Of a stretch of DNA of 64,000 nucleotides, positions 747 through 38,950 are shown piece after piece. The notes under the pieces were generated by a model. The model saw only the letters and a list, made by a program, of their open reading frames with translations, did not search any database and was not told the origin of the DNA. This DNA is from Styela clava (Eukaryota): positions 11,780,001-11,844,000 of the forward strand of contig NC_135260.1 of assembly GCF_964204865.1 (NCBI RefSeq), written 5' to 3'. The translations under genes were made by a program, and so were the position numbers. The first letter of the stretch is position 1; the number at the start of each line of letters is the position of its first letter.

Positions 747-2741
747 ATTTTCGCTTCGTTCTGAAATATGGGCTACTTGGTTAACTGCTTCCCAGTTCAA
801 CAGTATGGCGCAATTTCAATTGGTCTCTCCTAGATCTCCTTTTACTCCGATTGTAACTGTTCAAATATTCGGTATTTGATTGCGGACTATTCTTATCAAA
901 ATTGAACGTAATAAAATTCACAACTTCTTTAGCAGTGGAGAAATGCACTATTCAAGCTCATACATTGGCGAGGCCAGCTCGTTAGTATTTGGAGTATTGG
1001 CGGAAATACTCCAATTTGAAATGAGGTGATATTTATTTTGTAATCGTAATTTGAGCTTACGAGGGCCAACTTAAAACTGTCGGGTTTTTGTAAACGAAAG
1101 ACACAAGGCTAGAGCGCCAACGTGTGTTTACCTTCATACCTTTTCAACTCATCGGCAAAAGAATTAGGCGTTGAAAGTGTATTTATATGGTATATTTTAA
1201 GAAATACAAAAACAAACTAGGTTTTGAAAATATTTTAGATTAACATAGCTGAATATCTTGACAAAATCCCTGCAGAAATATCTGATCAGAACATAGTCAT
1301 GCTAGAATCAACTTCCGCCCTCATTCGCACAGTCATCAATCATAGCCTTTTTTCACTAGGAAAAGTGTAGCTGTAGCTAGTGAATCGTTCGTTCTCTTGT
1401 GTTTGAAGGTAATTGAACAACATACTCATCCCATCGATTACGCTGCTGTCCCACTAATGCCCAGGTCAATGATATCCATAGCTATGGTCCCTTATTCACC
1501 TCTTCGTTGTTGCTAAACCTTCAGATAGATACTTCCCTAACAATGTACCGCATCAGTCGTAATATTTTCTGATGAAACTAGGTGGCAGGTGTGCACAGGA
1601 TAAGTTTCAATCACCTAAGCCAATTTGTACGCTTCAAACGACATTTTGTTAAACTTTTTACCAACCCAAGTAGACCCAGATAGCAAACATTCTCACAAAT
1701 CCCTTTGACCGCATTGAAATATCAGTCACCTCCAGTTAAAAGATAGTTGCTGACTGATCTTCGTTCCTTTTCAAATTACACAGGTTAGGGACAGACTTTT
1801 TATAATAGATGTAAAAAAAATTGAGAATCTTATATATTGGAAATCGTTGCTCTGTAGAATAACTGGATCCTCAAAGATTAATTAGTCACAATCTTGGGAA
1901 GCAAAGTGTAGTCCATACTGAACAAGTATCTATACAATCAACGTAGAACACCAGAACAACCATTTATTAATACAATATTGGCACTTTCCATACAATATAC
2001 CCATGACTGGGATTAAAGCAAGTTTCTTTTTTCATGTTTAAAAAGGATAAGACAAATGGCATTAACAAGAACAGTATTATTACATTTGAACGATTTTCAA
2101 AATGCAATATACCAAAAGCAGAGAATGAATTTATTTATTCTTGACCAATATATGAAATATTTACATTTGTATAATAAACTTTGAACATTCAGTTAAACCA
2201 ATGTATTAGTGATATCAGTGCGTTTATGTCATCATATATTCATTTCTTCTGAATTACTAAATGGAAACTAAACAATATAGAATAAACCAATGTAAATTAC
2301 AATAACTATCAACATATTATATTTAAACAGGTCATTTCAAATCATTTCTATGGAGTCTCAGGTTCTGAATGCAATCACAATAGATTGTGCCAACAAGCCT
2401 TATTTACTAGTAGTGATTTATTATATCTAATATAACTGAATTTACCACAGAGGAATCTCTTGCAAATGTCATCTTTTTATACAAGTTTATATGGTAGTTC
2501 TAAAAGTCAATGGCGAGACATTGTAAAGATTCCCAACACTCAAAATAACATTTCTTGTGTTATTTATATCTCAATGAAAGCCGTTGATAAAATTGGTCAG
2601 TTTCCATGAAACGTTTCAGCTCAGTATTGGTTCGAATTCATATCAAACGACTGCAATCATCGTTCTCATCAAGTCAATATTATGAAATAAAAAGTTTGTC
2701 ATATTTATAAAGCAGCGCAGTCCTTGCTTGTGTTACACCCA

Positions 2742-3625
2742 CTAGCTTCCGACAATAATGTTGTTGATTGGAATGTGGATGAGTTTGACAAAAAATCCAA
2801 TAAAACCCATTATTGCAAATCCAATCGCAGTTGCCAAGGCGATCTTTTGAAATTCTTTCCTATCTGGTTTGGTACATCTTTTTACCAATCTGATTGAATC
2901 TTTGCTGAATTGCTTCAGAGGTTCAACATATACCATAATCTGTATGAAGAAATTTAAACAAACGTCAATTAAATTTTTTCAAATTGAATTTTTATTAAGC
3001 ATACTCTTAATAACACAAGAGTGTTTGCTGTTATATTGATGCTGGCAAATGGATATACAGGGATCGTACAGTAGAGTTTGAAAACTGTAGTTAAAATATT
3101 ATGAATGTATTAATAAACAATTTTGGTATTGTCTGGCTTTGTTATTAGCACAGATTGAGACATAATAATAAAAAACTGCATATTATATGTACTAACAATG
3201 GGTTGGAAAACAATCTCAAATCATAGAAATGGCATAGTTATAATTTCACCAAAATAAATGCTGAACACTTGTAATTTTTTGACAGTCCCAACTTTTCTAT
3301 GAAACCAGAAAAAAGAGAAATCTTAGTTAAGATTATATTCAATCCTTAAAATAATCCATAGTGTAGTAATATTGATTCCTATTTTTAGTATATGATGTTG
3401 AGACAATACGAAATAGGTTCAGATATCAATCAGCAATTAGAAACCAATTTGGGCATTATCACATTCATTCTGACTTTTACTATATAATGGTTGAAATTAC
3501 AGAGCAACTATGCAAGTTCGCGAAAAAAAATTCACGTAAAACACAAAAACTGATTAGTGCTAAGTTAAATGATTTTAGAATCTATTCTATTATACAGTTA
3601 TAAGTCCAATGCATACCTGATCCAT
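2742..3625 (-). CDS. SEC61G: Protein transport protein Sec61 subunit gamma, 68 aa, 2 coding exons (3625-3617; 2939-2742)
   Basis: MDQ|[65 protein letters not shown] closely matches the canonical metazoan sequence. Phase-0 intron GTATGC...ATACAG. Confidence 0.97.
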
Positions 3626-4147
3626 CCTGGAATATTATAAAGTTCTTTCGTTGTCTTGAATAGAAAATAAAAAAATTCTTTTGATCACTCGCTATAGTAC
3701 AGGCAACTGGGACGCACAGCAACTAACACGTAGCGAGAAATGTGACAGATCGACACGAAATTCTGAACGCTAGCGAGTGCGCTGGTAAATATGACGAAAG
3801 AGAAGTCTACAGTTGTGGTGACGTTGCAGCTACTGTCGGTCATGCGTATCGAAATTGGATTTTAGAATGATACCCTTTATCGCCTCTGGCGTTACTCGTA
3901 CTGGCTTGTGAATGTGAACGAAAAAGATTTCGATTTAACAATCATTAATGGAATTTAATTAATGACTAGAGCAATATGTATTATAAATATATACATATCT
4001 AGTAATAGAGCAAATTTGTGCAGCAGTGGTTATACACGAATTACTGCTCCTAAAATACGGTAAATTAATACAAACAAATACTGATTCGCCATTCACGAAT
4101 CTTAATAAACGACGAAAAAGACTCCAAACAGATCCCAACCAGATATT

Positions 4148-5547
4148 CTATCCAACAAATACGTCAAATATCTTACCGAATTTGATTTCTTCATATGGTA
4201 TCTTATGAACATCTCCCTTTGCTTTACACAAAAAAACTCTTTCATCCGTAATATGTTCACAACTAATTCGATTAAACCTAAATATTACGTTTTGCGAATC
4301 ATGATCGTTTCATATGATGAATATGAATATATATATATACTTATACATCATCAGTCGGAAAAAATGTAAAATTTAAAATTGTACCAGCATGCCTACAGTG
4401 TTGAAAAGCTCGTATAATTAGATACAATTTACTATCACAGTATACACCCTCACTAATTTTGTTTGAAATACTCCTCGGTTCTTCGACACAGGCACTGGGT
4501 GTTTTCATTTGCACTATTCTGAACGAAAAAAAAAATATTGAGCTTCTAAGATTGACTTTGCTATAAATTATCAAAGTTGTCGGTATAAATAATTAAATTC
4601 ATTATCGCTGTAGACATGAGCTGACCATGACTGAAAAATTGGATAACAGCTTGGAGCATACTCGGTGAGGGCCTAGGCCACTTTTATTGAAGCAGATAAG
4701 TTATTAATATACATGACTACGAGACTGCTGCATAAAATAGTTCGGTGTAAATCATTTGCGACCTGCACGACAGATCCAGCAGTCAAGGAAGATAGGAACC
4801 TCAGTTGCGTTTCCCATCAAAAATAATTGATCATGTGTATTTCAGTCACATAAGTACCAAAGGTGACATCAGTTACCATACTCATGGATATATATATATA
4901 TGTCCAGTCAATTGCAATAGACTTGATATCCGAACAAAAAATCTGCATATCGCATAGGACGTATGGGTGAATCGACGGTTACGTGTATGTATAAGAGAGG
5001 TTTTGCGTGGTTTCGGGCAGAATTAAGATTAGGATAAATTATAGAAAATATTTTCAAAATATAATTCAAGTTCATGGACGCCATCTTGTGCCATATTTAG
5101 GAAACGCGGAACAATAGAGTCTTATGGGAAATTTTCGTCGTGTTGTTGTACCGAATCGGATAAGTCAGCTGTTATGAGGGCGAGAATGAAGCCGAAGGGT
5201 GGATTTTGAACTTTAAGCTACATGCTACCTAAATATATAACAAACTATCTAACTATCTATATAAAAAACTATCTAACGCGTTGAATTTGACCACAAACAC
5301 AAGGTAGAACCACTTTTGATCATTTTTTCGTAAATTTTATAGTGATACGTCAATTTGACGCTGTAAAATGTCTCCGCAAAAATCTTACAATGTCATTTGT
5401 TCTTATATTCGTATGCAGTGAATTACGTGAGCCGTTAAGGGTTAGTATTATCTTTTTCCTGTTCGTATTTTAACGATTCATAGAACTTGATGTACGACGA
5501 AAACGACTCCTTAGTCTCGACAGTTTTTAAAATTGTTTTGAACCCAT
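4148..5547 (-). pseudogene. Paralog B1 of the unrecognised tandem gene family (5' exons degenerate, middle exons apparently missing, last two exons open)
   Basis: First exon ATG GGT TCA AAA CAA TTT TAA (MGSKQF*). 4760-5020 is homologous to 9340-9610. Exons ~4518-4453 and ~4262-4148 splice in frame to ...TEEYFKQNYCEHITDERVFLCKAKGDVHKIPYEEIKFGKIFDVFVG*, homologous to 6250-6640. Confidence 0.55.
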
Positions 5548-6249
5548 CAGTCAAAATCTGACGACCTACAAAACTTAATGTTTAGCAACAAGATGCTTGT
5601 CGGAGACTTCAAAATGGCTTCATATATAATATATACATATTTTGAAAGTTTTTAAGAGAAAACTTTAAGAAACAAGAGAGCAATGATGAATCATAAGGAC
5701 ACGAAAGCCAAAACGAAGTAGTACGGGTTGCTAATCTTCTCTAATACCGGTACAGGGGCATAGTCTTCGCGACTTTGACTGACCACCACTAGATCGTAAC
5801 GAGCGCGGAACCGTGTGTAGAGTCAACAATACAAAATATAGTCCATATAGAATTATATATATATTTCATAAATATTTATTACTAAAATGGTATATTATAC
5901 TGGAAATAGAATTATAAATAGATATAATTAATACATATAAATTAAGGAGATAAAATAGTTAATCAGAATAGGAAATAATAGGCGAAGCTGGAGAACAGGC
6001 AATCCCGGGCCATCTAATGTTGTGATATCCTGAAATTTTAAAAATAGTAGTATTATGAAAAAAGGTTCTCATAATTTTGATTCAAGCATAAAATGTAAAA
6101 ATTGAGAGCGGATATCCAGCAAATTATTTTGTAATAGCAAGTTCATTTTGTCGCTATACAATTTCCCTTCAAATCATTCCTGTTTTATTAAAAATAATTA
6201 TAAAGACTGGGTAAATCTTCTCATTAGTGTAGCAATACACGGTAGTGCT

Positions 6250-9200
6250 CATGATTCGATTGCGAGAAAGAAGAAAGATATAAACAGATCCAAACCAGAT
6301 TTTCTAACCAACAAAACCTTGAAGATCTTACCAAATTTAATTTCTTCATACGGTAGTTTTTCGAGTTCTCCCTCAAGAATGGCATGGAACTATGCAAAAG
6401 AATATTTATATCAAAAAACTTTTAATCTGTGATATGTTCCTCCCTAACTCAGTCTAATAATGCCAATTTTATATTTATACGTTAAAATATGAACATAAAT
6501 CATTACAGTATTCAATGTAATTTATCATCAGAGTATACCACACTTACTAATTTGGTTTGAAATACTCCTCGATAGTCAGACACAGGAGCTGGATATTTTC
6601 TTTTGCTCTTCTCCCCAATGCCTCCCTCTCTTACATTGTTCTAAAAAAAATTGATCTTTCATAAATACATCTGATAAAACTTAAATTAAAAATATCTGCA
6701 TATAATATTAATCAAACATTGTGGTCTTTAGCTCACCATAACATGAAGAATATTCGGTAATCTACGCTATTTTCTATCGAAGCAGTTATTGAACTAAACT
6801 ACAGATTTGCTTGGTACCTAAGCAACATCCAGGGTGCTCCAGAAAGGTAACCAATATGGAAGTAAACTCATTTTGTTTGCCTACTTTACAAACTATGGAC
6901 AAGGGGCTAACACGGACAGTCTCCGAACTCCTAATAGAACTAAAATATTTCCAGTTCAACCGGAAAGCTTGAGAAATATCGGAATAAAAGTATGACCTAA
7001 CCCTAATCCGTATTTGCTCTGGTACATATATATATTATGGGAATACCACATCCAGTATTATATAACCTTAGAGAAATATTTTCATCATAACATGTATTCA
7101 TTAATACTAACATTACAAGATCGAACAGAAGTGCTTTTCCGGCGTTGATTGAAAAACCTGGAATTACAATAATTTATTTTAAAATTTATGTTCCATGTAT
7201 TATAGTTTGGGAGTAGTTTTACATTTTCTTCGCAAACGAACAATATAATTTAATACTAATCATTGCTTCAAATCTCAAATAAGAATCCCTGGTGGACACT
7301 GCGGAGTCGCATGCTTTCTTTACAGAGTAACTTACTTGTTTGCCTTGTGCTCAAAACTTCCTGAGTCAGGAATGTGCTTGTTTGATTTATCAACTCGGAA
7401 TTTCTTGGTAACATTTTTGATTCTTTTATCATCGCCTTTAGCTGGGATTCTCAGCTGGGTGAAAATAATAAAATCAAGAAATAATTCAACGGACAACTCT
7501 AAGTGGTGTTTTCCATTAAGAACATCAAACTTTAAATTAAAAAAACGAGAACTTAGTATGCAACATTATCCAGGTAACATAAAAATATAGCAAAACAACT
7601 AATATACTGACTTCGGAAAATTTCGCCAATGCATCCTTCGTCGTCCATAATTTTTCTCGGAGTTTCTATAAAACATTGAGTTGATATTCGTTTTTCGTCA
7701 ATGTTTTTTAAGAAATTTAAATTTAAGACCAAATGTATGATGGACTCACTTCATTCGTTTTTCTTAACGCGGCATTTTCCGCTCGTAACTTTTCCAGTTC
7801 ACTGAAATTTATTTTCATATTGATTCGTTATTCTAATTACGAATGAAAAGAGAGGTTATGAAAATCGTTAAACGATAGTCATAGACATTCATAGTATTTT
7901 CTCTAGTTATTTCACGGAACTTGAAATGAATTTTGTCGAAATTAAAACAATTTATTTCTTGAGTAATAAGTATTTCCCTATTGCCCATTGTCAATTTATA
8001 TCAAATTCTTCGATGAAGTCTTAATTGGCTGTAATAGAAACTGTGCTTTATTGATCACATTAAGTATGCTCGCCAATCAACCAATATAGTTACACTCACG
8101 TCTGTTCTTCACAATCTTTAGATTTCTGAACAATAAAATAAAAATGATTTCACACAAAATAAATGTGTGGTTTCATCTTATTTATAATATAAAAATATGC
8201 TACAACCTTGCTGGGTGCAGATTCTATTGTTGCACTTCGATGTCCTACGGAACTAATCGTCAATAATGAATCCCAATTTGATGTTTCCTAAACATAAAAT
8301 CTTCAATAAGAAAAACATATGATGAAAACTAGGCGCTCCCAGAAGTAAAATTGAAATGCAAAGCACAACACGGTTTCTGAAACAGTTCAAATTACCTTAT
8401 GTTTATTTGAAGCGAAGTTCTGACTAGTTATGGCGAGTGTTGATTCCTCGCCAGAAGTTTGTAGATAATTTTCTCCTCTAATAACCACATTCTGCAAAAA
8501 TAAAATTAATTTTAAAAAATAACGTAAACAACGATTATACTCATATCGTTCAACACAAAAAAAAAACTTCCCCGGACTTTGGCCGTACGTGAAAAGTCAT
8601 ATTATATTAGATATTGCTGATATTCTAAAAAGAAAACGTTATTTGATAACTTACATTTCCACGAAGCATGCCAACAACGAGTCCTCGCAAGAGTTGCGAA
8701 ATATAATCGGGAACAAACGCTCTCGTCGAGTATGTAACGTTTGAAGCCCACAGAACCATATGTGTTCTCGCCGTTCGCAATGCTTCTCGCATCCTAGATG
8801 GACGAGAAGAAAGACGTGGAATTTTTCAGATTTGATATTCATTCACCATATTTTATTAAATATATCAATACACACTCACTGTCTACGTCTTCTGATGTTC
8901 TTTTCAAATTCCGATTCGTGGACCCAATTTGCTTCAGCGAAAGCTCCGGTTCTAAAATAGAATATCGATAGATTTCATATCATTCATGGTGAATTTAAAT
9001 AAATATAAATTCAAAAATGTTGTGTGTAGTAATTGTGGTGAAATGTAACCGCATTATACTGGAATTCAAAAGTGAGATCTTCCAACTTTGATCAAGTATG
9101 AATATCAAAGAGTATACTAGGTTGAGAAATTTCAAAAACCAAAGACAAGCTTCTCTTTCTTCGTAAATGAAATTGGGATCGATAAAAGCAGCTCTTCTTT

Positions 9201-10237
9201 TCAAATGGAGACGATCTTTTTTGTCAAACGAAGAATCCGCTTATTACAATTGTATTACGGAATTTGCGGATTATCGAAGGTATCGCTTTCAGATTACAAG
9301 AAGTCAACTTAAAATAGTTTGTTGAAATTCACAAAAGACCTGCATAACAGATCCTTGCAGAAGACGATGTGACCGGAACCTCAGTCTCGTATTTCCCATC
9401 AGAAAACGATGATCGATTGTATTTTCATTCCCATATCATTATTGAATGTTGGTGTCTATGAGCTTGGATATGTCCGACCGATTGTCGTAGTCCACCTTAC
9501 TAGACTCAATATCCGAACGAAAAATCTATATATTGCAAAGGGTTTATGGGTGGATGAATGGTTATGTACATGGAAGATGATTTATGTGTTTGCGTATTAT
9601 TAGGTAGAATTATGATTCGGTGACATATATACGAGTTATTCAAAAAAAGAAGAAATGTGAAATGAAAAAAAATAAAATATGTTAACGAAACTACGTTTTG
9701 ATCTGAATAAGTTATTTGGAAATTTCTCAGTGAGTTCGGCATAAATTGTGTAGTATTCTAACGACCATAAACTATATTGCTAGCTGTAGACTTGCTATTT
9801 TTAAAAGTATACTGAACACAGTAACATCTCAATGTATTAAAAAATAAACAGTTATATGAATTAACGTTACCAAAACATATAAATAATGTTTTAAAAAAAG
9901 ATATAATGAACTATTGCTTCAATTTTTAATCAAATGTTCCTGCATCGCATAAATATGTCAGTTGCATTAAAAAATTCAATTAGTCTACTTACAGAAGCGA
10001 GAGTTGTTTTGTCCTGACATTTTTCTTCTCGCTACCAAATCCATCTTGCTTTGCGGAATCTTTGGACATAGGCTTGTCTAAAGGTGTTTTGTTGTTTTCC
10101 GTGCTGTTCTGTCCCGCCATCGCATATTTTTGTTTCCGCAGTTTCCACTTTCTCTTATTCCCATGAAGTGATTCATTGCTATTAAATTTATCACCCGAAG
10201 TCTTTCCTCTTTTCAATTTACAACAATTCGAGCCCAT
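6250..10237 (-). CDS. Paralog A1: multi-exon uncharacterised protein with MGSNCC N-terminus (predicted myristoylation plus palmitoylation) and a short coiled coil; partly degenerate, gene or recent pseudogene
   Basis: Exon 1 is 10237-9993. About ten consecutive phase-compatible GT-AG exons between ~8951 and ~6737 read TGAFAEANWVHESEFEKNIRRRR/MREALRTARTHM...GMLRGN/NVVIRGENYLQTSGEE.../ETSNWDSLL.../KSKDCEEQ/ELEKLRAENAALRKTNE/KLREKLW.../LRIPAKGDDK.../FFNQRR.../FSSITAS.... Stops occur in the exon-2 region (~9340-9600) and the last exons. Confidence 0.6.
6833..7047. mobile_element. Merlin-like MITE (GG termini, 8-bp TSD ACATCCAG), intronic; duplicated at 19258-19472
   Basis: ACATCCAG|GGTGCTCC...GGAATACC|ACATCCAG; internal CCTAACCCTAA. 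Confidence 0.7.
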
Positions 10238-10714
10238 TCTCAGGTATTAGTAGGATAATTTCAGATGTATTCGTCGCAAAACCTGTAATCTAACTGAAAG
10301 TTAGAGATCTAGATGGGGAAAATAATGGTAACTAATTAGGTTGCTGCCCTCAAAATACTGAGCAATAAATTGAAATAGGTAAAGACTAGTGTTGCAATAA
10401 CCTACAATAAAAGCATACCTAGCATTCGACTTTTATAACTGCACAACCGAAGTATTAGCTGGAACTAAAATAGCTAGAACTATCTCTATTTGATAAATTG
10501 CAACAAATAGTTAATGGACAGGCAGTAGGTAACCTGGGTAACCTTCATATATTATGGCGTCATTATGTATTACCATTGTGACTGTCAAGGATTGTTGCTT
10601 GGGAATGAAAGGTCAAAGTTCTTGACTTTCGTATAAACTTCAAATCGGGCAACTATGAACATGAGGAAGCATTCTAATATATCGACAATATGAAAGCACT
10701 CACTGCTTGAGACT

Positions 10715-10846
10715 AGAGATGTACCGATACCACTTTTGTCGCCGAAACCAATACCGATCCGGTACCAACGGAAAAATGTCGATACCGATTCGCTAATATT
10801 TCAAAAAGCCGATATAGCCGATACCAATATTCGAATACTATGTTAT
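10715..10846 (+). mobile_element. hAT-type element left end (TAGAGATG terminus, CCGATACC subterminal repeats); second copy ~23065-23188
   Basis: TAGAGATGTACCGATACC followed by several CCGATA(C) repeats. No matching right end found. Confidence 0.55.
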
Positions 10847-11755
10847 AATTTCGTTAAGTGTGCAGGACACACGGCTTGAAACAATAGTTTGTGAGCATTA
10901 CTCAGAGTGTACGTTATTTCAGATTAAAAAATAAATATTTCAGACAATGAGAAATTGATGTTTGTGATCCAAATGCATTAATTGATTCAGATGCATCGTG
11001 CACCGGCGCTAGTAATGTCGGTGTTCTATTGGAAAACTCATAGGATTTGGCTACCATAAGTGGTAAAATAAATAAATGTTTACTTATCCTAATCTGACGT
11101 TTGTTTGACGTCGTCTGCTGCTGAACTCAGCAAACACGGTGTCGCTGACACGATGACTCCGATAGTCTTTCGCGTCCCGCGTCATTTGCGGAAATATTGA
11201 ATATCTCTTTATTGGACACGTTAGTTCAGAAGGCTATTAATTTTATTTATTTCTAAATTTCCTATGAATCTTTTGAGATCTAATATTTCCTCTAAAATTT
11301 CGCTGTATTACTTCTTGAATATGGGAATACGGTTTTTAATCCGCCAAGCGTGACGGCTAATTCTACAAATTGTTCCTACTCGGAACTCGGAAGTTTTTTG
11401 AGGTTACCGGTAATGCTAAAGGTGTGGTAAACTGCTGCAGTGAGTATTTTTTTGGTTGGTGTTAATATAATTGTAGACTGTGCTGTCATGATACCGTAGT
11501 AAATTGAATCAGTTGGCAGGTTGGTATTTCAATTCACGTAGAAACGGAATCGTCACAGGACCTTGAAAATCCGTGTACCGGTCTATCTGTCTCACAAACG
11601 AGGACCCTCTGACATTGCGACTTTTTGTTAAAACTTTCGAATGCTAAGTTTTTTTCCGGTAGATCGGATTATTTTTTATCAAAGGAATTCATTGGTGACG
11701 TTTTTAAATTGCGTTTTTTTGCGCGGTGTTGGTTTGTCGATATGGTTGCCTAAAC

Positions 11756-11830
11756 CAGTGGACCCCAACCTTTCTACTGGTGAAACTGAAAAAAAAAATG
11801 TACTCGCGGACCGGCAAAAATTGAAATGAG
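11756..11830 (+). mobile_element. Truncated hAT (Charlie-like) MITE end
   Basis: CAGTGGACCCCAACCTTT...CGCGGACCGGC resembles the CAGTGGTTCCCAAACT end at 32720. No partner TIR or TSD found. Confidence 0.4.
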
Positions 11831-12324
11831 TGGAACAGAAAATAATAACATATATTTGCGTAATGTCAGGCAATCACTATGCTTTTAGAACATCTTTAGT
11901 CACATCTTGACTATACTTGAAAATACATAACAACCTCGCTTGACTTACTTGAGGGACAGATTGACTTGTTTCAGCGGAATGGTTCACCAAACTGTTCTTC
12001 CACACTGCATTTCTAATAGGTGTTTCCTAAACGTGAAGTCTTAGATAAGAAAATCGTGATAGAAATATATAGTAAAATATTTTACATTTTGAGGGACAAT
12101 TCAGATTATCTTAAGTTGATTTGATTGCATGTTATCCTGAGTTATAGCGAGTCTTGACTCCCCGCGGGAAGTCTGTAGGAAATCTTCTCCTCTTCCAATC
12201 ACTACATTATTCTGTAATACATCAAATTCATATAAAAAATATATACTGCGAAAGTAACAACGATTATACTCGTACAAAATCTTTCCTTGACCTTGGTCCG
12301 AATATAAAATTCATATTATACTAT

Positions 12325-15263
12325 TAGGCCGCGAGCCGAGGCCATTTATCTTTCAGTTTCGTAGCGCACATCAGGTAACTACCTGAAAATGATTTTAAAA
12401 TGTTCCTTAGAAATTTAGTAACAAATATTGCCTTGTTCCCACTTCCAAAAGTTGCACGTTTTACAGAAAAGACGCTTTTACTACAATAAATATGTGTTAC
12501 CATCTGTCCTATTTTCTCTGCTTTTCCGGTATCATGGGCCAATGAACGCAGACTTCTGCACGACGTAACAGTCAAGTTAGTCAGCTGTAGGTGGATCCCC
12601 AGTGGTCGGATGAATATCAGATGTACTCAACTGCTCGCTTTTGCGTTGAGTAGCCTTTCCATAGTTTTTTTCAGTTACCGGTAATATTAGTCCAGTTATT
12701 CTAAGGAGGTGTTGAAAAGTATAGGTAAGATATTAAACACTTGTATATCCTTGCCATAAATAGCAATTTTAGTTGAGCACTAGCTCATAAGACGTTGTTA
12801 AATAGGTACGGTGCGGTAACTCCAAGGAAGGCTAGACCTAGAATAATATGTCACAAACAACGATATTTTCTGGCTTGCATGAAATGTTTATGATTAATTT
12901 AATGACTCTTCTTGACTATTCAGCAGACTTATACTACTATATAGGCCACAGCATATTTGGAAATAGAAATGAATGGCTGTTTCTGTAATGCACGGTTGTG
13001 TGAAAAAGAAGAAATTAATCAATTTTACTAATGTCGGTTGGTCTAAATCTAAATTCATAGAGTCGACAAGAACCTGGGAAGCAATGATACCTAAGTTATG
13101 CCGGAGTGGAAAGAAAGGTAGCATTGGAAATGATTGAGAGGTGAGAAATGAAGTTGTAGACAAACAGTTGATGTTTCAAAATATACCGTAGTCTATAGTC
13201 CATACTCATACTGCTGTACTGTCATAGGACATTTCAGACTGTGATATATCAAAATTTAGTGTAGATATAGTCTAGTAATGGTATGCAAACACTGCTGGAC
13301 TGTAGAACATGCAATGAGCATATATACGCTCATTTAGTACATCAGATAAAATGCATTATGTATTCAAGGTATTAGTTAGTATTTAGGGGTATTTTTAAAA
13401 TCATGCTGCTCCAAATATTATTTTCTTCCTTATTTTAGATACTGTACTACAAAAGAAAACGGCAATGTTCCACCAATCCGACCTAACGCAGGCTCTGATC
13501 CCTGCTGCTATCAGTGCTATAAAATGGATTAAACAAGAAGTCTTGAAGCTTAAAGGTATATGAGAATCATAATAGTTGCAAACAGCTTAGATGGGCTATT
13601 CATATTGAAATACTTTAGCACTTTTCTGCAATTGGAACTGCCCATCAAATTCATGTTGGAGACTTCATTGAGATTTTCAATTCATTTTTTTCCCTCGACT
13701 ATGAAGATCTTTTGAGGTTAACGAGGTATTAATAAATAAAGCTGAGGAATTTGAAGAGGATATGAAGAATGTAAATGATACCAGGGCACGTCTATTTAAC
13801 ACTGTCAAACATAAGGATTATACTCTCCACCCAACAATGATTCACTGAAGAAGCATGTGGCCCTCAAATCAGTTCTTGAGTTGGCAAACTGCAAAGAAAA
13901 ATAGTCAAAATAATTTATGAAAGTGTGCCAAAATCAACTTAAATTGCACAGATTTTTGTTTTTGTATTGACTGCAGAAATCACAGTACACCTATAGAGGA
14001 AAAGTCGATTTTTGAGATAGTGGATTTCGAAAACAATTCAGAAGAAAGTGAATTAGATATTACAGTTGATTTAATAAGTATCATACATTTGTTTTTTTTT
14101 TCGGACATTTGTTAGTGTCGTAGTCCTGTTTCTAGAAATATTATTGCCTTTGTTCAAATACATAACCACATAAACTAAAAAAAGATTAATTGTAAATTGT
14201 AATATTTCTGTTCACTATGTTATGTACATATTGTACATTGATTTAATTTTCTTGACTTTTGCGGTAAATTTCTAAGTGAGAAATAACTGATTTATTTGTG
14301 TTTTCGTGCTCACGATGTTAATTTGTGACTTCATTGCTTAAAAATAAATACGTTTGATACTTGATAGCTTCTATAAAATGGATGTAGCGTTTTATGCTGT
14401 TCTTGTTGTAAACTGCTTGTGGTTATTACATAAAATTTATTCTCAAATGTGAATCAGCGTTGTTGGTGTCGCTGCTTTCGAGGTCACTCCCGACTCCTGT
14501 CACACAATTAAAGTATTTTTTGTTGTTGGTTACATGTATGCCATATTTTTCGTAATCTACCTAATAAATTATGATTGACTGAGGAAGTCCGATTTTGGTC
14601 AGGCAAAACATTACAGGAATACATTTGTGTTAGTGTGCTGTAGGGCTCTCGAATTGTATAGTTCTTATGTATGCGTTGTAAACTTATGGTTATTGAATTT
14701 CCGGGAACCTCTTATATTCGATTTCGCACCAGGATTGTGGAACAAGCTGTAATGCGTTCATTATGTTCGTTTTCACACAAAACTGAAGAATTTATTTAGT
14801 TACCAGATGTGCGCTACGAAACTCATTTTCTGGGCGTTTTCATGGTTTCGTCTCACGGCCCATATCCGTGGTAAGGATCTACAAGTGTTTAATAATTTAC
14901 TTTCAACAACGTCTTAGCATAACTAAACAGGGCTATGGAAAGCCTGCCCAACTCAGCGCAAGGTCGAGCAGAAATAACTAATATTCATCCGCTCGCTAAC
15001 AGCTGGTTTAATTCAATTGTTACGTCATGCAGAAGTCATTGTTCAGTGCCGAAAATGTAGAGAATATAGGACAGATCGTAGCACATATTTCTTGTAGTAA
15101 AAGCGTCTTTTCCGTAAAACGTGCAACTTTTGGAAGTGGGAACAAGGCAATATTTGTTACTAAATTTTTAAGGAACATTTTAAAATCATTTTCAGGTAGT
15201 TACCTGATGTGCGCTACGAAACTCACTTTCTAGGCGTTTTTCAGGGCTTCGGCTCGCGGCCTA
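12325..15263 (+). mobile_element. Decayed Academ (AcademX-type) DNA transposon, 2.9 kb, long TIRs, 3-bp TSD TAT
   Basis: TAT|TAGGCCGCGAGCCGA...TCGGCTCGCGGCCTA|TAT. TIR near-perfect over ~190 bp and imperfect to ~430 bp. Internal remnant ~13760-13980 reads VNDTRARLF...PPNNDSLKKHV...SVLELANC...KCAKINLNCTDFCFCIDCRN, resembling the C-terminal Cys-rich finger of Academ proteins. Confidence 0.75.
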
Positions 15264-15798
15264 TATATACTGCAGATTATTTGATTGAAAAATAAAAATC
15301 TGAAAAATTTGAAAACTCACATTTTCATGAAGCCTGTCTATAACAAAGTCTCGTACAATTTGAGAAAAACAAGATGGGAGGTACATTCTTGCTGAGTTCG
15401 ACACACTCGTGGCCAACATACATATCTGCATCCTAGCGGTTCGCATAGCCCGCATCCTATGATGATGAAACGAACGATAAACGATATTCGTGTTTAATTT
15501 TCGACGTAGCTTATTTTATCAAATATATGATTGCACACTTACTCTCTACGTCCTACGTCTTCTTAAGTGTTTTTCAAACGTGATTCATGAACCCAATTTG
15601 CGCTTGCAAAAGCTCCGGTTCTAAAATAGTATCAAAGCATTTCATATTATTCGTATAATCAATCTAAATGGCGTAATTCGAGGGGGGTGATTAAATGTGT
15701 TTCTGTATGCTAAAATCATTGTTTGACTATAGATGTATATCATGAACTGTATTCGTACTATACAGAAGTTGAACGCCATATATATATATATATATATA

Positions 15799-16950
15799 TA
15801 GTAGGTCGGGGTAGTTCGGACACCCGGGGTATGATGGTCAGTCAAAATAAAATCCTCCTACTAGCGACACCTCGCGCTTTTTCGTCGCTCAAAACGCATC
15901 GCGTGAAAGAGCGACATCATGCGAACAACGACAGAACCAAGATTTTACATTTCAGGCTCGACAACTTACAAGGCGGTGCTTTTTGGGGAAGGGGTGTTTC
16001 TGTTGGGACAGAAAAACGTCAAATTATAGAGTCCCATGGTGGCGAAGAATAATTTTAGCCGGAAAAGTCTGCGAACTCGGTTCTATTTTGTTTATTTGTT
16101 GAAAGTAGTTGCATTAAATCGAATAAATTCTTAAGCAAACTGCCAGTACTCATTTTTGGGCTGGCAGGGTCACTTAAGAGGTAGGTTGAATTTTGAGTGG
16201 GGGAGGGGGGAGGATTTTTTTCAATATAGTCTGTTGGGAATGTCAATGGGCCGTCGTCATCGAAACTTATAAATAATTATTTTTTGGTACTAAGTACCCT
16301 TTTACAACAAAGATCAAAAGCACACCCATCGCCATATTTATATTGGATCTCTTAGAAGTTAAGCCCGGCGTAAAATTTCATCTTACCCCGTCAAATTATT
16401 TTTTTCATATGCGTATAAAATACGCCCAAGGTTATGCCAAGAAATTACAAAATAAATACTTCTAGATGTAGTCCGTGTAAAGAAGATAGAAAAATTGCAG
16501 TTGAAAAAGCGCAAACTAAATTTTAAATTTCTAGTTTTCCTAAAACTGTTCAAACTCTTTTGAAAATTGCCCTGTTATGTCCTTTATGGGGTAAGACGGA
16601 CATACTTTTTAATATGCAAGAAAAGTGATCTGTTTAAAAAATATTTAAGAGACATAATCCTGGGCCATCTAGGCGTTGATCGAAGTCTTATGACCGAAAT
16701 CTTAGACACCATCAAGTTAATTTTGGTGTGTGTCCGTCTTTTCCACAAAGTGTCTAACTTACCCCGATATTTTTTTAGCTGAAAATCGGGCGTAAATTCC
16801 GATTCGTTGCTATGGCAACAATGTGCAAATGTGGCAAGATAGCTGGAGGGTGGGTGCATGAATCAATCGTAGAACGAATGCAGCTGCGACATTATTTGAA
16901 GAGTTATTCAAAATAACTTATTAGTGGGTCCGACTTCCCCCGACCTACTA
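15799..16950. mobile_element. Non-autonomous TIR DNA transposon inserted in a (TA)n tract (Tc1/mariner-pogo-like targeting)
   Basis: (TA)n-GTAGGTCGGGGTAGTTCGGAC ... GTCCGACTTCCCCCGACCTAC-(TA)n. No credible transposase ORF. Confidence 0.7.
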
Positions 16951-17158
16951 TATATATATTTGTAAGTTTTGAGCCAATATGAATGCCAAGAAAAATATCA
17001 GGTTGAAAATATGAATCTACGAAACGAATCTTCTCCTTACGCTATATCTCTGTGAGTCAATAAGATCAATAAAAATATCTTATAAATTGAAAGGGAAGCA
17101 ACCTTGGATTGTATATCAGAAGAAAAGCCATGATTTACGATTGCATTAGCTTACAGAC

Positions 17159-20100
17159 TATTAAGATACATGACTACGAGACTGCTGCATAAAATAGTTC
17201 GGTGTAAATCATTTGCGACCTGCACGACAGATCCAGCAGTAAGGGAAGATAGGAACCTCAGTTGCGTTTCCAATCAAAAATAATTGATCATGTGTATTTC
17301 AGTCACATAAGTATCTCGGTTACCATACTCTTGGATATGTTCAGTCAATTGCAATAGACTTGATATCCGAACAAAAAATTTGCTTATTGCATAGGACGTA
17401 TGGGTGAATCGGCGGTTACGTGTATGTATAAGAGAGGTTTTGCGTGGTTTCGAGCAGCATTATGATTAGGTTTAAACATAGAAAATATGGATGCCATCTT
17501 GTGCCATTATTGGGAAACGAGAAACAATGGAGTCTTATGGGAAATTTTCGTGGCGTTATTGTACCGAATCGGATAAGTCAGCAGCTGTTATAAGGGCGAG
17601 AATGAAGCCGAAGGGTGGATTTTGAACTTTAAGCTATATGCTACCTAAATATATAACAAAATTAAGAAGAAAAAACTATTTAATGCGTTTAATTTGACCA
17701 CAAACACAACGTAGAACCACTTTTGATCATTTTTTTGTAGATTTTATAGTGATACGTCAATTTGACGCTGTAAAATGTCTCCGCTAAAATCCTACAATGT
17801 CATTTGTTCTTATATTTGTATGCAGTGAATTACGTGAGCCGTTAATGGTTAGTAATATCTTTTTCCTGTTCGTATTTTACCGATTCTAAGAACTTGATGT
17901 ACGACTCCTTTACCTCGTCAGTTTTTAAAATTGTTTTAAACCCATTAGTCAAAATCTGACGACCTACAAAACTTAATGTTTAGCAACAAGATGCTTGTCG
18001 GAGACTTCAAAATGGTTAAAAATGCTTCATATATACACATTTTGGAAGTTTTTAAAAGAAAACTTTAAGAAACAAGAGAGCAATGATGAATAATAAGGAC
18101 ACGAAAGCCTAAACGAAGAAGTACTGGTTGCTAATCTTCTCTAATACCGGTACGGGGGCATAGTCTTCGCGACTTTGACTGACCACCACCAGATCGTAAC
18201 GAGCGCGGAATCGTGTGTAGAGTCAACAATACAAAATATAGTTCATATAGATTATATATATATATTTCATAAATATTTAATACTAAAATGGTATATTATA
18301 CTGGAAATAGAATTATAAATAGATATAATTAATACATATAAATTAAGGAGATAAAATAGTTAATCAGAATAAGAAATAATAGGCGAAGCTGGAGAACAGG
18401 CAATCCCGGGCCATCTAATGTTGTGATATCCTGAAATTTTAAAAAATAGTAGTATTATGAAAAAAGGTTCTCATAATTTTGATTCAAGCATAAAATGTGA
18501 AAATTGAGAGCGGATATCCTGCAAATTATTTTGTAATAGCAAGTTCATTTTGTCGCCATACAATTTCCCTTCAAATCATTCCTGTTTTATTAAAAATAAT
18601 TATAAAGACTGGGTAAATCTTCTCATTAGTGTAGCAAAACACCGTTAAGATCCAAATTGGCTACAGTGCATGCTCATGATTCGATTGCAAGAAAGAAGCA
18701 AGATATAAACAGATCCAAACCAGATTTTCTAACCAACAAAACCTTGAAGATCTTACCAAATTTAATTTCTTCATACGGTAGTTTTTCGAGTTCTCCCTCA
18801 AGAATGGCATGGAACTATGCAAAAGAATATTTATATCAAAAAACTTTTAATCTGTGATATGTTCCTCCCTAACTCAGTATAATAAAGCCAATTTTATATT
18901 TATACGTTATAATATGAACATACATCACTACAGTATTTAATGTAATTTATCATCAGAGTATACCACACTTACTAATTTGGTTTGAAATACTCCTCGATAG
19001 TCAGACACAGGAGCTGGATATTTTCTTTTGCCCTTCTCGCCAATGCCTCCCTCTCTTACATTGTTCTAAAAAAAAATGATCTTTCCTAACTACATCTGAT
19101 AAAACTTAAATTAAAAATATCTGCATATAATATTAGTCAAACATTGTGGTCTTTAGCTCACCATAACATGAAGAATATTCGGAAATCTACGCTATTTTCT
19201 ATCGAAGCAGTTATCGAACTAAACTACAGATTTGCTTGGTACCTAAGCAACATCCAGGGTGCTCCAGAAAGGTAACCAATATGGAGGTAAAATAATTTTG
19301 TTTGCCTACATTACAACCTATGGACAGGGGGCTAACACAGACAGTTTCCGAACTCCTAATAGAACTAAACTATTTTCAGTTCAGCCGAAAAGCTTGAGAA
19401 AATTTGGAATAAAAGTATGACCTAACCCTAATCCGTATTTGCTCTGGTACATATATATACTATGGAAGTACCACATCCAGTATATGAAACAGAAACCTTA
19501 GAGAAATATTTTCATCATAACGTGTATTCATTAATACTAACATTACAAGATCGAACAGAAGTGCTTTTCCGGCGTTGATTGAAAAACCTGGAATTAGAAT
19601 AATTTATTTTAAAATTTGTGTTTCATTTATTATAGTTTGGGAGTAGTTTTACATTTTCTTCGCAAACGAACAATATAATTTAATACTAATCATTGCTTCA
19701 AATCTCAAACAAGAATCCCTGGTGGACACTGCGGAGTCGCATGCTTTCTTTACAGAGTAACTTACTTGTTTGCCTTGTACTCAAAACTTCCTGAGTCAGG
19801 AATGCGCTTGTTTGATTTATCAACTCGGAATTTCCTGGTAACATTTTTGATTCTTTTATCATCGCCTTTAGCTGGGATTCTCAGCTGGGTAAAAATAATA
19901 AAATCAAGAAATAATTCAACGGACAACTCTAAGTGATGTTTTCCATTAAGAACATCAAACTTCAAATTTAAAAAACAAGAACTTAGTACGCAACATTATC
20001 CAGGTAACATAAAAATATAGCAAAACAACTAATATACTGACTTCGGAAAATTTCGCCAATGCATCCTTCGTCGTCCATAATTTTTCTCGGAGTTTCTATA

Positions 20101-23100
20101 AAACATTGTTTAAGTTGATATTCGTTTTTCGTCAATGTTTTTTAAGAAATTTAAATTTAAGACCAAATGTATGATGGACTCACTTCATTCGTTTTTCTTA
20201 ACGCGGCATTTTCCGCTCGTAACTTTTCCAGTTCACTGAAATTTATTTTCATATTGATTCGTTATTCTAATTACGAATGAAAAGAGAGGTTATGAAAATC
20301 GTTAAACGATAGTCATAGACATTCATAGTATTTTCTCTAGTTATTTCACGGAACTTGAAATGAATTTTGTCGAAATTGAAACAATTTATTTCTTGAGTAA
20401 TAAGTATTTCCCTATTGCCCATTGTCAATTTATATCAAATTCTTCGATGAAGTCTTAATTGGCTGTAATATAAACTGTGCTTTATTGATCACATTAAGTA
20501 TGCTCGCCAATCACCCAATATAGTTACACTCACGTCTGTTCCACACAATCTTTAGATTTCTGAACAATAAAATAAAAATGATTTCACACAAAATAAATGT
20601 GTGGTTTCATCTTATTTATAAGATCAAAATAGGCTACAACCTTGCTGGGTGCAGATTCTATTGTTGCACTTAGATGTCCTACGGAACTAATCGTCAACAA
20701 TGAATCCCAATTTGATGTTTCCTAAACATAAAATTTTCAATAAGAAAAACATATGATGAAATCTAGGCGCTCCCAGAAGTAAAATTAAAATGCAAAGCAC
20801 AACACGGTTTCTGAAACAGTTCAAATTACCTTATGTTTATTTGAAGGGAAGTTCTGACTAGTTATGACGAGTGTTGATTCCTCGCCAGAAGTTTGTAGAT
20901 AATTTTCTCCTCTAATCACTACATTCTGCAAAAATAAAATTGATTTTAAAAATATACAGTAAAGTAAACAACGATTATACTCATATCGTTCAACACAAAA
21001 AAAAACTTTCCCGGACTTTGGCCGTAAGAGAAAAGTCATATTATATTAGATATTGCTGATATTCTAAAAAAGAAAACGGTATTTGATAACTTACATTTCC
21101 ACGAAACATGCCAACAACGAGTCCTCGCAAGAGTTGCGAAATATAATCAGGAACAAACGCTCTCGTCGAGTATGTAACGTTTGAAGCCCACAGAACCATA
21201 TGTGTTCTCGCCGTTCGCAATGCTTCTCGCATCCTAGATGGACGAGAAGAAAGACGTGGAATTTTTCAGATTTGATATTCATTCACCATATTTTATTAAA
21301 TATATCAATACACACTCACTGTCTACGTCTTCTGATGTTCTTTTCAAATTCCGATTCGTGGACCCAATTTGCTTCAGCGAAAGCTCCGGTTCTAAAATAG
21401 AATATCGATGGATTTCATATCATTCATGGTGAATTTAAATAAATATAAATTTAAAAATGTTGTGTGCAGTAATTGTGGTGAAATGTAACCGCATTATACT
21501 GGAATTCAAAAGTGAGATCTTCCAACTTTGATCAAGTATGAATATCAAAGAGTATACTAGGTTGAGAAATTTCAAAAACCAAAGACAAGCTTCTCTTTCT
21601 TCGTAAATGAAATTGTGATCGATAAAAGCAGCTCTTCTTTTCAAATGGAGACGATCTTTTTTGTCAAACGAAGAATCCGCCTATTACAATTGCATTACGG
21701 ATTTTGCGGATTATCGAAGGTATCGCTTTCAGATTACAAGAAGTCAACTTAAAATAGTTTGTTGAAATTCACAAAAGACCTGCATAACAGATCCTTGCAG
21801 AAGACGATGTGACCGGAACCTCAGTCTCGTATTTCCCATCAGAAAACGATGATCGATTGTATTTTCATTCCCATATCATTATTGAATGTTGGTGTCTATG
21901 AGCTTGGATATGTACGACCAATTGTCGTAGTCCACCTTACTAGACTCAATATCCGAACGAAAAATCTATATATTGCAAAGGGTTTATGGGTGGATGAATG
22001 GTTATGTACATGGAAGATGATTAATGTGTTCCCGTAATATTAGGTAGAAATATGATTCGGTGACATATGTATGAGATATTTAAAAAAAGAAGAAATGTGA
22101 AATGAAAAAAAATTAAATATGTTAACGAAACTACGTTTTGATCTGAATAAGTTATTTGGAAATTTCTCAGTGAGTTCGGCATAAATTGTATAGTATTCTA
22201 ACGACCATGAACAATATAGCTAGCTGTAGACTTGCTATTTTTAAAAGTATACCGAACACAGTAACATCTCAATGTATTAAAAAATAAACAGACGTATGAA
22301 TTAACGTTACCAAAACAGATAAATACTTTTTTGAAAAAGATATAATGAACTATTGCTTCAATTTTCAATCAAATGTTCCTGCATCGCATAAATATGTCAG
22401 TTGCATTAAAAAATTCAATTAGTCTACTTACAGAAGCGAGAGTTGTTTTGTCCTGACATTTTTCTTCTCGCTACCCAATCCATCTTGCTTCGCGGAATCT
22501 ATAGACATAGGCTTGTCTAAAGGTGTTTTGTTGTTTTCCGTGCTGTTCTGTCTCGCCATCGCATTTTTTTGTTTCCGCAGTTTCCACTTTTTCTTATTCC
22601 CATGAAGTGATTCATTGCTATTGGATTTATCACCCGAAGTCTTCCCTCTTTTAAATTTACAACAATTGGAGCCCATTCTCAGGTATTAGTAGGATAATTT
22701 CAGATGTATTCGTCCCAAAACCTGTAATCTAACTGAAAGTTAGAGATCTAGATGGGGAAAATAATAGTAATTAATTAGGTTGCTGCCCGCAAAATACTGA
22801 GCAATAAATTGAAATAGGTAAAGACTAGTGTTGCAATAACCTTCAATAAATGCATACCAGTTAATGGACAGGCAGTAGGTAACCATAGGTAACCTTCATA
22901 TATTATGGCGTCATTATGTATTACCATTGTGACAGTCAGGGATTGTTGCTTAGGAATGAAAGGTTAAAGTTCTTGACTTTCGTATAAACTTCAAATCGGG
23001 CAACTATGAACATGAGAAAGCATTCTAATATATTGACAATGTGAAAACACTCACTACTTGAGACTAGAGATGTACCGATACCACTTTTGTCGACGAAACC

Positions 23101-23188
23101 GATACCGATCCGGTACCAACGAAAAAATGTCGATACCGATACGCTAATATTTCAAAACGCCGATACCGATATTCGGATACTATGTTAT
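17159..23188 (+). repeat. Segmental duplication, copy 2 (partner 4702-10846)
   Basis: Direct repeat at ~12.4 kb offset. Lacks ~80 bp present near 10420-10508 and carries ~25 extra bp near 18645. Confidence 0.97.
18675..22676 (-). CDS. Paralog A2 (near-identical duplicate of A1)
   Basis: MGSNCCKFKRGK... exon 1 at 22676. Same exon series as A1. Retains an AG acceptor before GCGGATTCT (~21681) that is altered in A1. Confidence 0.6.
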
Positions 23189-23644: not shown

Positions 23645-24817
23645 TTATGTCGGGGGTTGATTTTCCAGTTGTCGCAGTCGGCTCTCCTTTTCTTTATTTT
23701 CTTCTTTCAGTTTCTTTATATGTTCAGCAAGAAAGTTGCACTTCTTGTTGTGATCTTTCTGAAGCGATTCCAGAGCAGACATGGCTGATTTTTTTGAGGT
23801 GAAAGAGTCGTCTGTGTTCTTTGATCCGTCCGTTGATCTGCCGTTTGCACTACTTCCAGTTGACGAAGTACTGGGTCTGTCTGTAGGTCGCAGCTGCGAA
23901 TTCCCGTCTTGCAATGAAATGGGAATGATGCGGTTTCTGGCAGGTGAACTATCAGACACGTCTTTAAGTGTGGAATTCAACTGTGGGCGAAAAGAAATTG
24001 TTTTGGAAGTTGAAGATCCGTTTGGTGAAGAACGGTGCATCGAAGCTGACACATTCGAAAGTCCTAATATTTTTGAAGATGGCGAAGGTGCATGCGGTTC
24101 TAAAAATGATTTCCTATCTTGCAAAGCTTTTACCATATCCTCCAGCATTTCTAGCTCGCGACTGGTTTCTGTGACATCTCTTTCGCACATTTCAAGTCGT
24201 TTTTTCTGAGCAATATTGGCTGACCTTAACTCGTTGTTCAGTGCCAGGAGCGCTTCTTTTTCCGCAGCGCTTTGTCGCAAAATATCATCCCTTGACCTCA
24301 ATTCCGCGGAGACTTCGCCGTTGTATCTTCTCTCTTTCGCTAGCAACCTTTCTAACTCTGCACATTTCACTTTACATTTCTCGCCAATTTCTTTTTCTTC
24401 TAGGAGAATTTCAATGGTGTTTTTCTGTTCTAGTGCCAATGATCGGTAAGACGAAATTTCGTAAGACAATTCTTCCATTTCTCTATCTTTTCGTGCAATT
24501 AATTCCTTTAAATTTTGTTCCGTGCGGAGTCGTCTTCTAAGTTCATTTTCAGATGTTTCTTTAAACTCACGCCAGTCCTGTAATAGAACTCCTATTCGCT
24601 TTGAAGCTTCTCCTCTGACAACTTTTGCTTTATCTGAAAGCATCGTACCCGCGATGTCGGTATCCTGGTCCTCCAAAATGAACTTCAATCTTTCAGAAGT
24701 TGGAGAAGATGTTAACGCTCCGATTACTGTTTCGTCTAGTGATCTGTCTGTTTCTTGGCGCAATAATTTGAGTTTCTCGCGTAACTTCAAATTTTCCGTC
24801 TTAAGATTTTTTAACAT
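23645..24817 (-). CDS. Uncharacterised coiled-coil protein (390 aa ORF; true start may lie upstream)
   Basis: Long ORF rich in E/K/L/R heptads, then a Ser/Pro-rich linker and a C-terminal short coiled coil. AATAAA on the minus strand at ~23616-23621, just after the stop. Confidence 0.75.
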   Translation of the reverse strand: MLKNLKTENLKLREKLKLLRQETDRSLDETVIGALTSSPTSERLKFILEDQDTDIAGTMLSDKAKVVRGEASKRIGVLLQDWREFKETSENELRRRLRTEQNLKELIARKDREMEELSYEISSYRSLALEQKNTIEILLEEKEIGEKCKVKCAELERLLAKERRYNGEVSAELRSRDDILRQSAAEKEALLALNNELRSANIAQKKRLEMCERDVTETSRELEMLEDMVKALQDRKSFLEPHAPSPSSKILGLSNVSASMHRSSPNGSSTSKTISFRPQLNSTLKDVSDSSPARNRIIPISLQDGNSQLRPTDRPSTSSTGSSANGRSTDGSKNTDDSFTSKKSAMSALESLQKDHNKKCNFLAEHIKKLKEENKEKESRLRQLENQPPT

Positions 24818-38520: not shown

Positions 38521-38950
38521 TCGGTAAAATGTTTTTTAAGACAATCCGATGTATATTGAGTGCTATTCTTATCGCTAATTTCAATTCGACGTCTGCCCGA
38601 AGGTGGTGCAAGTATTTATATTTGAAGTGAGTACATACCTCTTCAAAACGCCCAGATGGAAGATTGAACAAGTCGGAGTCAACAAAAATTCAATTACATT
38701 TGGAACGTTGTCGCACTGCATCGTCGCCACTCATATACTCTGACATTCCGATGCATGGATTTTGCTTTCTGGAAAATAATAATTGGAGTGTCTGTTAAAG
38801 TGCGAAATGTATACGGGAGCACGTACAATATCAATGCTTCGTTTGCAAGCGTTGGTATCATGATACATGTGAGAAATTATCGAAAGCGAAATTGTGGAAG
38901 TGTAAAATTTGTATTCGGTAAGTCGGTGTTGCAAATGTGGGTATTTTCAG

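Follow-up and report, generated by a model that had tools for sequence, protein, structure and literature searches.

We analysed a 64,000-nucleotide stretch of Styela clava DNA (the window; contig NC_135260.1, positions 11,780,001 to 11,844,000), in which an earlier note made from the letters alone had described a four-member tandem array of lipid-anchored proteins, with two copies each of two diverged types, A and B. We find that the locus evidently consists of two genes (A1 and A2) and one split pseudogene (B). A1 and A2 are intact genes, and the family is real, but it is smaller and less dynamic than in that first reading. On balance, we think that it is a small family, restricted to Styela, of non-enzymatic proteins of the cytoplasm, which would sit at the membrane's inner leaflet as dimeric scaffolds or adaptors and bind partners via a helical block and a C-terminal module. 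Coordinates are collected in Table 1.

We spliced the A copies as 13 GT-AG exons and compared them with the RefSeq products. The product of the spliced coding sequence is identical to P0003 for A1 and to P0006 for A2, and all 12 of the A2 introns are GT-AG. RefSeq labels both loci "uncharacterized" and gives no function. As the earlier note had remarked, the exons are small: 11 of the 13 A exons are 30-140 base pairs (bp) long. Our evidence for transcription comes from contigs of three runs that we guessed to be RNA (X1, X2, and X3, from three studies; no run is recorded as RNA), along with the DNA-like run X10. These 4 of the 13 known runs were aligned to positions 2400-17150, and splice joints were considered among the 15 of 89 that were listed. 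Of the 12 A1 introns, 10 match GT-AG joints (10 in X1, 8 in X2, 8 in X3, and 0 in X10), and introns 4 and 9 are the two without a match among those 15. There is a hint that both A loci are expressed, with shared polymorphism blocking a firm assignment: at codon 322, the transcript contigs carry the A2-type letter in X1 and the A1-type letter in X2 and X3. Relative to Sec61-gamma, which served as a single-copy and expression control, contig depth (a poor measure of expression) differs by about 20-fold between X1 and X2/X3.

RefSeq also models a 277-residue isoform that begins in exon 3, and so lacks the N-terminal anchor described below, at all three intact loci of the family. Two observations bear on the 5' end of the A genes. 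First, an RNA-like contig from X2 (9993-10310, minus strand) carries 20 extra letters ahead of 10310, which suggests a non-coding first exon of A that is not mapped here. Second, part of intron 1 (9290-9570 and 21730-22010, minus strand) is ~78% identical over 67 bp to the corresponding part of B (4715-4984 and 17170-17440), which is above the A-B conservation of the whole intron. It might serve the 277-residue isoform as an alternative promoter or first exon.

The third intact paralog, which we call C (LOC120327207), lies on a different contig and is 49% identical to A. On 155 shared columns, A and B are identical at 85, B and C at 81, and A and C at 77; because these identities are alike, the three lineages must be about equally old. 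A1 and A2 differ by 12 synonymous and 16 non-synonymous changes, for a ratio of non-synonymous to synonymous substitution rates (dN/dS) of 0.38 (Fisher's p = 0.019). Between A and B, dN/dS is 0.39 over 162 codons (bootstrap range 0.24-0.60, with gap and stop codons excluded). By these ratios the A genes are under purifying selection, and the A-B ratio agrees with a B that functioned as a gene through much of its past, although constraint acting solely on the A branch would lower it too. The earlier note had reckoned with an A-B ratio near 1 and no spliced transcripts in case the family was not real; we found a ratio well below 1, and spliced transcripts exist.

Self-comparison revealed one duplicated block of ~6.1 kb. 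Its copies are 94.5% identical between 4702-10419 and 17159-22858 and 92% identical between 10509-10846 and 22859-23188, and A1 and A2 evidently derive from this one recent duplication. Might A1 and A2 instead be alleles of one locus that the assembler set in tandem? Their divergence is low (97 of 3122 intron sites, or 3.1%, and a synonymous divergence, dS, of 0.048), which is only 2-3 times the heterozygosity of 1.72% that is reported in the accessible part of the genome paper (PMC7540406). Similarly, A1 and A2 differ at 16 residues, as compared to 20 of 383 residues between the two RefSeq versions of C. We nevertheless consider the allelic explanation very improbable. Both junctions of the block occur in contigs of X10 (a contig spans the boundary at 4702, and the joint from 17150 to 4702 is present), and the older and newer RefSeq accessions each list two loci. 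Furthermore, the X10 depth over A1 is 41-69 in 8 of 9 bins (the ninth is a repeat) as against 17-31 in 5 flanking bins, where this depth is not a copy number and X10 is possibly not independent of the assembly. T195 and A246 are common to the older RefSeq versions of both A loci but absent from the two copies in the window, and T195 is found in both RNA and DNA contigs; this points to gene conversion, shared polymorphism, or read mixing in the older assembly.

What had been taken for two B genes, "B1" and "B2", are evidently non-overlapping pieces of one older dead paralog. No B exon beyond intron 1 is present twice: exons 2-5 are found only at 15620-11949 and exons 11-12 only at about 4513-4177. 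Near 11850, within intron 5, B ceases to be homologous to A. Neither gap yielded exons 6-10 (alignment z scores of -0.2 and 1.0), and no exon 13 was recognised after exon 12. B is dead, with a frameshift and stop (from a 1-nucleotide deletion in exon 2), a lost splice donor (AT in exon 4, where A has GT), and two transposon-like insertions; exon 11 also has an in-frame TGA and lacks its 5' part. We saw no RNA-like contig over 3876-4859 and no B joint among the listed ones, which does not imply that B is silent.

The insertion in B intron 3 has a 175-nucleotide subterminal inverted repeat (95% identity) and very high, multi-copy depth. A GT-AG joint within it (13138-13437, plus strand) occurs in all three RNA-like runs and is probably due to transcripts of the multi-copy element, not necessarily from this copy.

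The simplest history that we infer starts from an A-B pair. A and the 5' half of B, as far as B intron 5, would have been duplicated in tandem, and the other copy would then have lost B exons 2-10. The data are equally well explained by a single duplicative insertion into B, and one haplotype does not suffice to establish the order in which the rearrangements took place, which weighs against our account of the events.

Most of the sequence blocks that the earlier note saw as shared by A and B hold up. TGAFA.ANWVHES, MR..RTAR, RGE..LQTS..ES.LAIT, and PYEEIKF are present at homologous splice sites, and nucleotide alignments of A and B at the shared blocks have z scores of 29, 21, and 13 relative to shuffles. 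In contrast, the block GSV(M/V)Q is not part of the protein: it lies inside intron 1, which is skipped by the RNA joint 8951-9993 in all three RNA-like runs, and its conservation is part of a broader homology of A and B intron 1 (z ~ 20). The B remnant of this intron holds it as GSVVQ, non-coding in the main transcript. EEYFK.N was read in the wrong frame; the spliced frame gives YRGVFQTKL, and the A-B dN/dS is 0.32 in this frame versus 0.92 in the other. As for PYEEIKFGKIF, its last three residues come from reading into the exon-12 donor (G/GTAAG). The protein instead continues as ...KFGYHNIRWPG into a 13th exon that had been overlooked, as seen from the joint 6028-6331 in two of the three RNA-like runs and from the RefSeq product. 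(Read-through of this donor, at 6250-6332 or 18675-18757 on the minus strand, would yield a hydrophobic C-terminus ending in ...FFLAIES; we saw no sign of its use.) Finally, the proposed MG(S/L) starts of B, at 5547 and 17945, run into a stop six codons on in both copies. They resemble neither A exon 1 (nucleotide z scores of 0.2 and 0.0) nor C exon 1; among 12 protein-frame tests of the B start region, the best was matched by 4 of 300 shuffles and was not repeated in the other copy.

The earlier note also implied that rapid turnover of the array might reflect a role in immunity, allorecognition, or gamete recognition. Birth and death are indeed both seen, as one recent duplication and one pseudogene, and the two versions of paralog C differ at 20 of 383 residues. 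Also, BHF (Botryllus histocompatibility factor), a lipid-anchored cytoplasmic protein, sits in a tunicate allorecognition locus, according to the available portion of PMC12065747. But the cluster has only two intact genes and one split pseudogene, and just three intact loci are known. The pairwise dN/dS values of 0.38 and 0.39 are not above 1, so that positive selection was not seen in them. The proteins have no transmembrane segment and no family match to an extracellular domain, and the identified neighbours are Sec61-gamma and a homeobox gene. We find no support for such a role and judge it improbable.

The A proteins begin with MGSNCCK, at 22676 and 10237 as first described, and each start is followed by a basic stretch (net charge of +10 over residues 1-40). 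No other ATG precedes this one in its exon, and an in-frame stop lies three codons upstream of it. Cys5, Cys6, and a net charge of +8 to +10 over residues 1-40 are found in all three intact paralogs. Along the protein, the identity of A to C by block is 8/9, 14/61, 43/75, 15/35, 7/34, 33/41, 18/65, and 42/63. The four conserved modules are residues 1-9, 71-145, 215-255, and 321-383, with variable charged linkers between them. The first 9 residues are thus selectively conserved (8/9, versus 14/61 for residues 10-70). Because Gly2, Cys5, Cys6, Lys7, and Lys9 stay constant in an exon 1 that otherwise drifts, we take the N-terminus to be a probable acylation signal, in line with the lipid anchor that was first suggested. 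It presumably fits the PROSITE myristoylation pattern. Gly2, Lys7, and Lys9 match the myristoylation signal of Src-family proteins as given in the accessible text of PMC2133112. The likeness to the Src-family SH4 region (Fyn, Lck; Gly2, nearby Cys, Lys7, and Lys9) is limited to this 9-residue targeting signal, as the A proteins are without SH3, SH2, or kinase domains.

No transmembrane segment was found (the highest hydropathy over 19 residues is 1.2), nor was an IQ-type motif, and the isoelectric point is near 10. The predicted coiled coil at 215-255 has Leu at one core position of the zipper and two Asn at the other. A leucine zipper with Leu and Asn at its core positions favours a parallel dimer. 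AlphaFold2, with a three-sequence alignment, gave a mean predicted local distance difference test (pLDDT) of 43, with helices at 69-150, 215-253, and 330-363, of which 215-253 is the sole part of the model with a pLDDT of 70-80. The C-terminal piece alone reached a mean of 54 with a two-sequence alignment. In the C-terminal module, Tyr 326, 333, 362, and 381 are invariant across the three intact paralogs, and this module of about 60 residues could be a new domain. (A likeness of the module to an ankyrin half-repeat or a kinase helix was unsupported by the searches. The zipper also recalls bZIP transcription factors, but there is no basic region before it, as the preceding block, 146-214, has net charges of +2 and -1, and Pfam gave no bZIP hit in the A proteins or C.)

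In the scaffold model that we favour, Met1 would be removed, Gly2 myristoylated, and Cys5 and Cys6 palmitoylated; the basic stretch would strengthen the attraction to acidic lipids. The low-hydrophobicity, variable linkers at 10-70, 181-214, and 256-320 would act as flexible spacers and the Leu/Asn zipper would form a parallel dimer. The helical block (71-145) and the C-terminal module would bind partners, so that these are clustered at the membrane, and the 277-residue form without the anchor would be a soluble isoform. Several points weigh against this model. Acylation, localisation, the dimer, and the partner are all predictions. Position 6 is Cys, where Ser or Thr is preferred (PMC2133112, same text). 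The structure models are poor, so a folded or catalytic domain could be hidden, and the A1-A2 dN/dS rests on 28 changes and includes polymorphism.

Searches for relatives returned only S. clava. Exon 1, searched against longer proteins, gave 2 hits among 18 candidates; whole proteins gave 3 of 2183 candidates at E ≤ 1; phmmer against 1.84 billion representatives gave 2 hits; and the C-terminal profile gave 2 of 83 candidates at E ≤ 10, with all of these hits from S. clava. The share of other stolidobranch proteomes in these libraries is not known, so absence from those species is not implied. No Pfam family reached its curated cut-off for four whole proteins and two C-terminal pieces. PDB gave three matches by sequence at E = 0.8-6.7, two of which are coiled coils, and none for the C-terminal profile. 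In the ESM Atlas, the language-model neighbours were all below 0.9 and the structure rows were all below threshold. The best Foldseek E value was 3.7 and the best VIA Z score was 2.9, on low-confidence models that show neither a new nor a known fold. Rfam had 0 matches over 2400-24000. The earlier description of a lineage-specific family that cannot be assigned to a known domain is thus borne out by sequence, Pfam, PDB, and fold searches, which gave no confident match to a characterised family. We found no paper by locus or protein identifiers (supplements outside the search may use other identifiers), and the available part of the S. plicata genome paper has nothing on the family (PMC12627437).

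These results could also arise if the family were a fast-evolved ortholog of a conserved one, for example of a coiled-coil membrane protein of cilia, sperm, or the cytoskeleton, and its sequence had diverged past detection. An old family is implied by thirteen exons and by three lineages that are ~50% identical, and the profiles were built from just 2-3 sequences, so their sensitivity is low. The difference in depth between X1 and X2/X3 is a weak hint of restriction to a tissue or stage. Given that the phmmer search found S. clava only, that no Pfam family reached its cut-off, and that the language-model neighbours all fell below 0.9, we regard this explanation as unlikely, if still plausible.

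A narrower version of the scaffold model, which we consider quite unlikely, is that the A proteins are phosphotyrosine docking proteins like FRS2, LAT, and BHF, with a membrane tyrosine kinase phosphorylating the C-terminal tyrosines and so recruiting SH2 proteins. YEEI is found at 355 in A1, A2, and the dead B, and arises in 0.26% of shuffles; pYEEI is a high-affinity ligand of the Src SH2 domain, as stated in the accessible text of PMC2888578. YHNI is invariant and fits the Grb2 pYxN type, and YRG(V/I) is conserved. However, these tyrosine motifs were picked out after the fact, and YxN and Yxx[ILV] are no more frequent than chance would give (48% and 15% of shuffles). C has FEEI, and Tyr and Phe swap at both 355 and 360, as would be expected for structural aromatics in a helix. 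Also, no PTB or PH domain was detected: PH_29 scored 16 bits, as compared to a cut-off of 27, and was absent in C, and the low-confidence model is helical in the region where such a domain would lie. No PTB/PH domain thus reached the Pfam cut-off, as membership in the FRS2/Dok docking proteins would require.

By analogy, the A family may nevertheless work like FRS2, LAT, or BHF. The parallel with LAT is drawn in part from PMC12065747. Like the A proteins, FRS2alpha is anchored by Gly2 and a nearby pair of cysteines and has tyrosine motifs towards its C-terminus, in the accessible part of PMC13143043. In contrast to the A proteins, which have a leucine zipper, FRS2 has a PTB domain after its anchor, and our searches found no sequence similarity between the two. 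BHF, as described in the available portion of PMC12065747, is a tunicate cytoplasmic protein with disordered stretches and helices that is held under the plasma membrane via N-terminal cysteines, and it carries YxxI/L motifs. This comparison is by description, not sequence, and the identified neighbours of the A genes are not fuhc genes. No protein named BHF appeared in any homology search, where its presence in those libraries was unchecked.

Table 1. Features of the A/B locus and its surroundings, in window positions.
Feature	Positions	Strand	Remarks
A1 gene	10237-5959	minus	13 coding exons, 383 residues; RefSeq LOC120347926 isoform X1 (P0003)
A1 exons 1-7	10237-9993, 8951-8880, 8793-8655, 8491-8396, 8287-8207, 8125-8100, 7801-7750	minus	
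A1 exons 8-13	7665-7612, 7454-7336, 7157-7112, 6640-6548, 6389-6332, 6029-5959	minus	
A2 gene	22676-18360	minus	13 coding exons, 383 residues; RefSeq LOC120347924 isoform X1 (P0006)
A2 exons 1-7	22676-22432, 21391-21320, 21233-21095, 20925-20830, 20721-20641, 20559-20534, 20235-20184	minus	
A2 exons 8-13	20095-20042, 19884-19766, 19587-19542, 19065-18973, 18814-18757, 18430-18360	minus	
Predicted dual-acylation N-terminus	10211-10237; 22650-22676	minus	MGSNCCK-x-K: Gly2, Cys5, Cys6, Lys7, Lys9
Predicted coiled coil, residues ~215-255	7612-8125	minus	exons 6-8; heptads ELLLTF / LNNLLR
C-terminal module, residues 321-383	5959-6640	minus	exons 11-13; two predicted helices, then GYHNIRWPG, CSPxSP
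Duplicated block, copy 1	4702-10846		entire A gene with its upstream region; upstream region and intron 1 of B
Duplicated block, copy 2	17159-23188		
B exon 1, expected position	17834-17963; second copy 5427-5565	minus	no detectable similarity to A exon 1
B intron-1 remnant	16968-17806; second copy 4715-5410	minus	homologous to A intron 1, ~65% identity, z ~ 20
B pseudogene exons 2 and 3	15321-15620	minus	exon 2: 1-nucleotide deletion, frameshift, stop
B pseudogene exons 4 and 5	11949-12211	minus	exon 4 donor AT, GT in A
B pseudogene exons 11 and 12	4177-4513	minus	exon 11: lacks its 5' part, has in-frame TGA
Insertion in B intron 3	12325-15263		transposon-like, 2.9 kb; 19-nucleotide terminal inverted repeats that begin with TA
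Insertion in B intron 1	15785-16964		1.2 kb; inverted-repeat-bounded, within TA repeat
Sec61-gamma, last exon	2742-2939	minus	PF00584, E = 3e-16; upstream exon ends 3617 (joint 2939-3617)
392-residue open frame	23645-24823	minus	coiled-coil-like; upstream of A2; no Pfam hit
Homeodomain gene	30060-31238	plus	PF00046, E = 3e-22
Two open frames	34391-36297	minus	no Pfam hit at E = 0.001 on separate pieces
Tandem array of ~425-bp units and inverted copy	36942-38521; 40520-42009		80-92% identity
730-residue uninterrupted open frame	58010-60202	plus	no Pfam hit at E = 0.001
Minisatellite	60741-62317		64-bp unit, ~24 copies

Elsewhere in the window, three features have assignments that we only presume. 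We take the two open frames at 34391-36297 to resemble a PQBP1-type WW-domain gene and the 730-residue open frame to resemble a domesticated hAT-type transposase. Exons at about 49660-54315 (plus strand) presumably belong to an extracellular protein of several domains, among them CUB, MAM, and TIL-type ones.

In summary, it is well supported that this family is real, expressed, uncharacterised, and lineage-restricted. As such it is ordinary among species-restricted families: of the gene families compared among five ascidians, 547 are unique to S. clava according to its genome paper (PMC7540406). Both A genes were already in RefSeq; our part is the description of the B pseudogene and of how the locus was duplicated. 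The locus is of value for its corrected gene model, for a targeting signal that is clear, and for a C-terminal module that is small and conserved. If the family is a convergent signalling adaptor, one could learn from it how chordates come to build membrane docking proteins from unrelated sequence. The boldest possibility is a styelid-specific, independently invented phosphotyrosine adaptor that is dually acylated and zipper-dimerised, has a new C-terminal domain with Src- and Grb2-type SH2 sites, and switches between membrane and cytosol via the 277-residue isoform. We see this as a long shot; if true, the sister group of the vertebrates would have its own functional counterpart to FRS2, LAT, and BHF, made from unrelated sequence.

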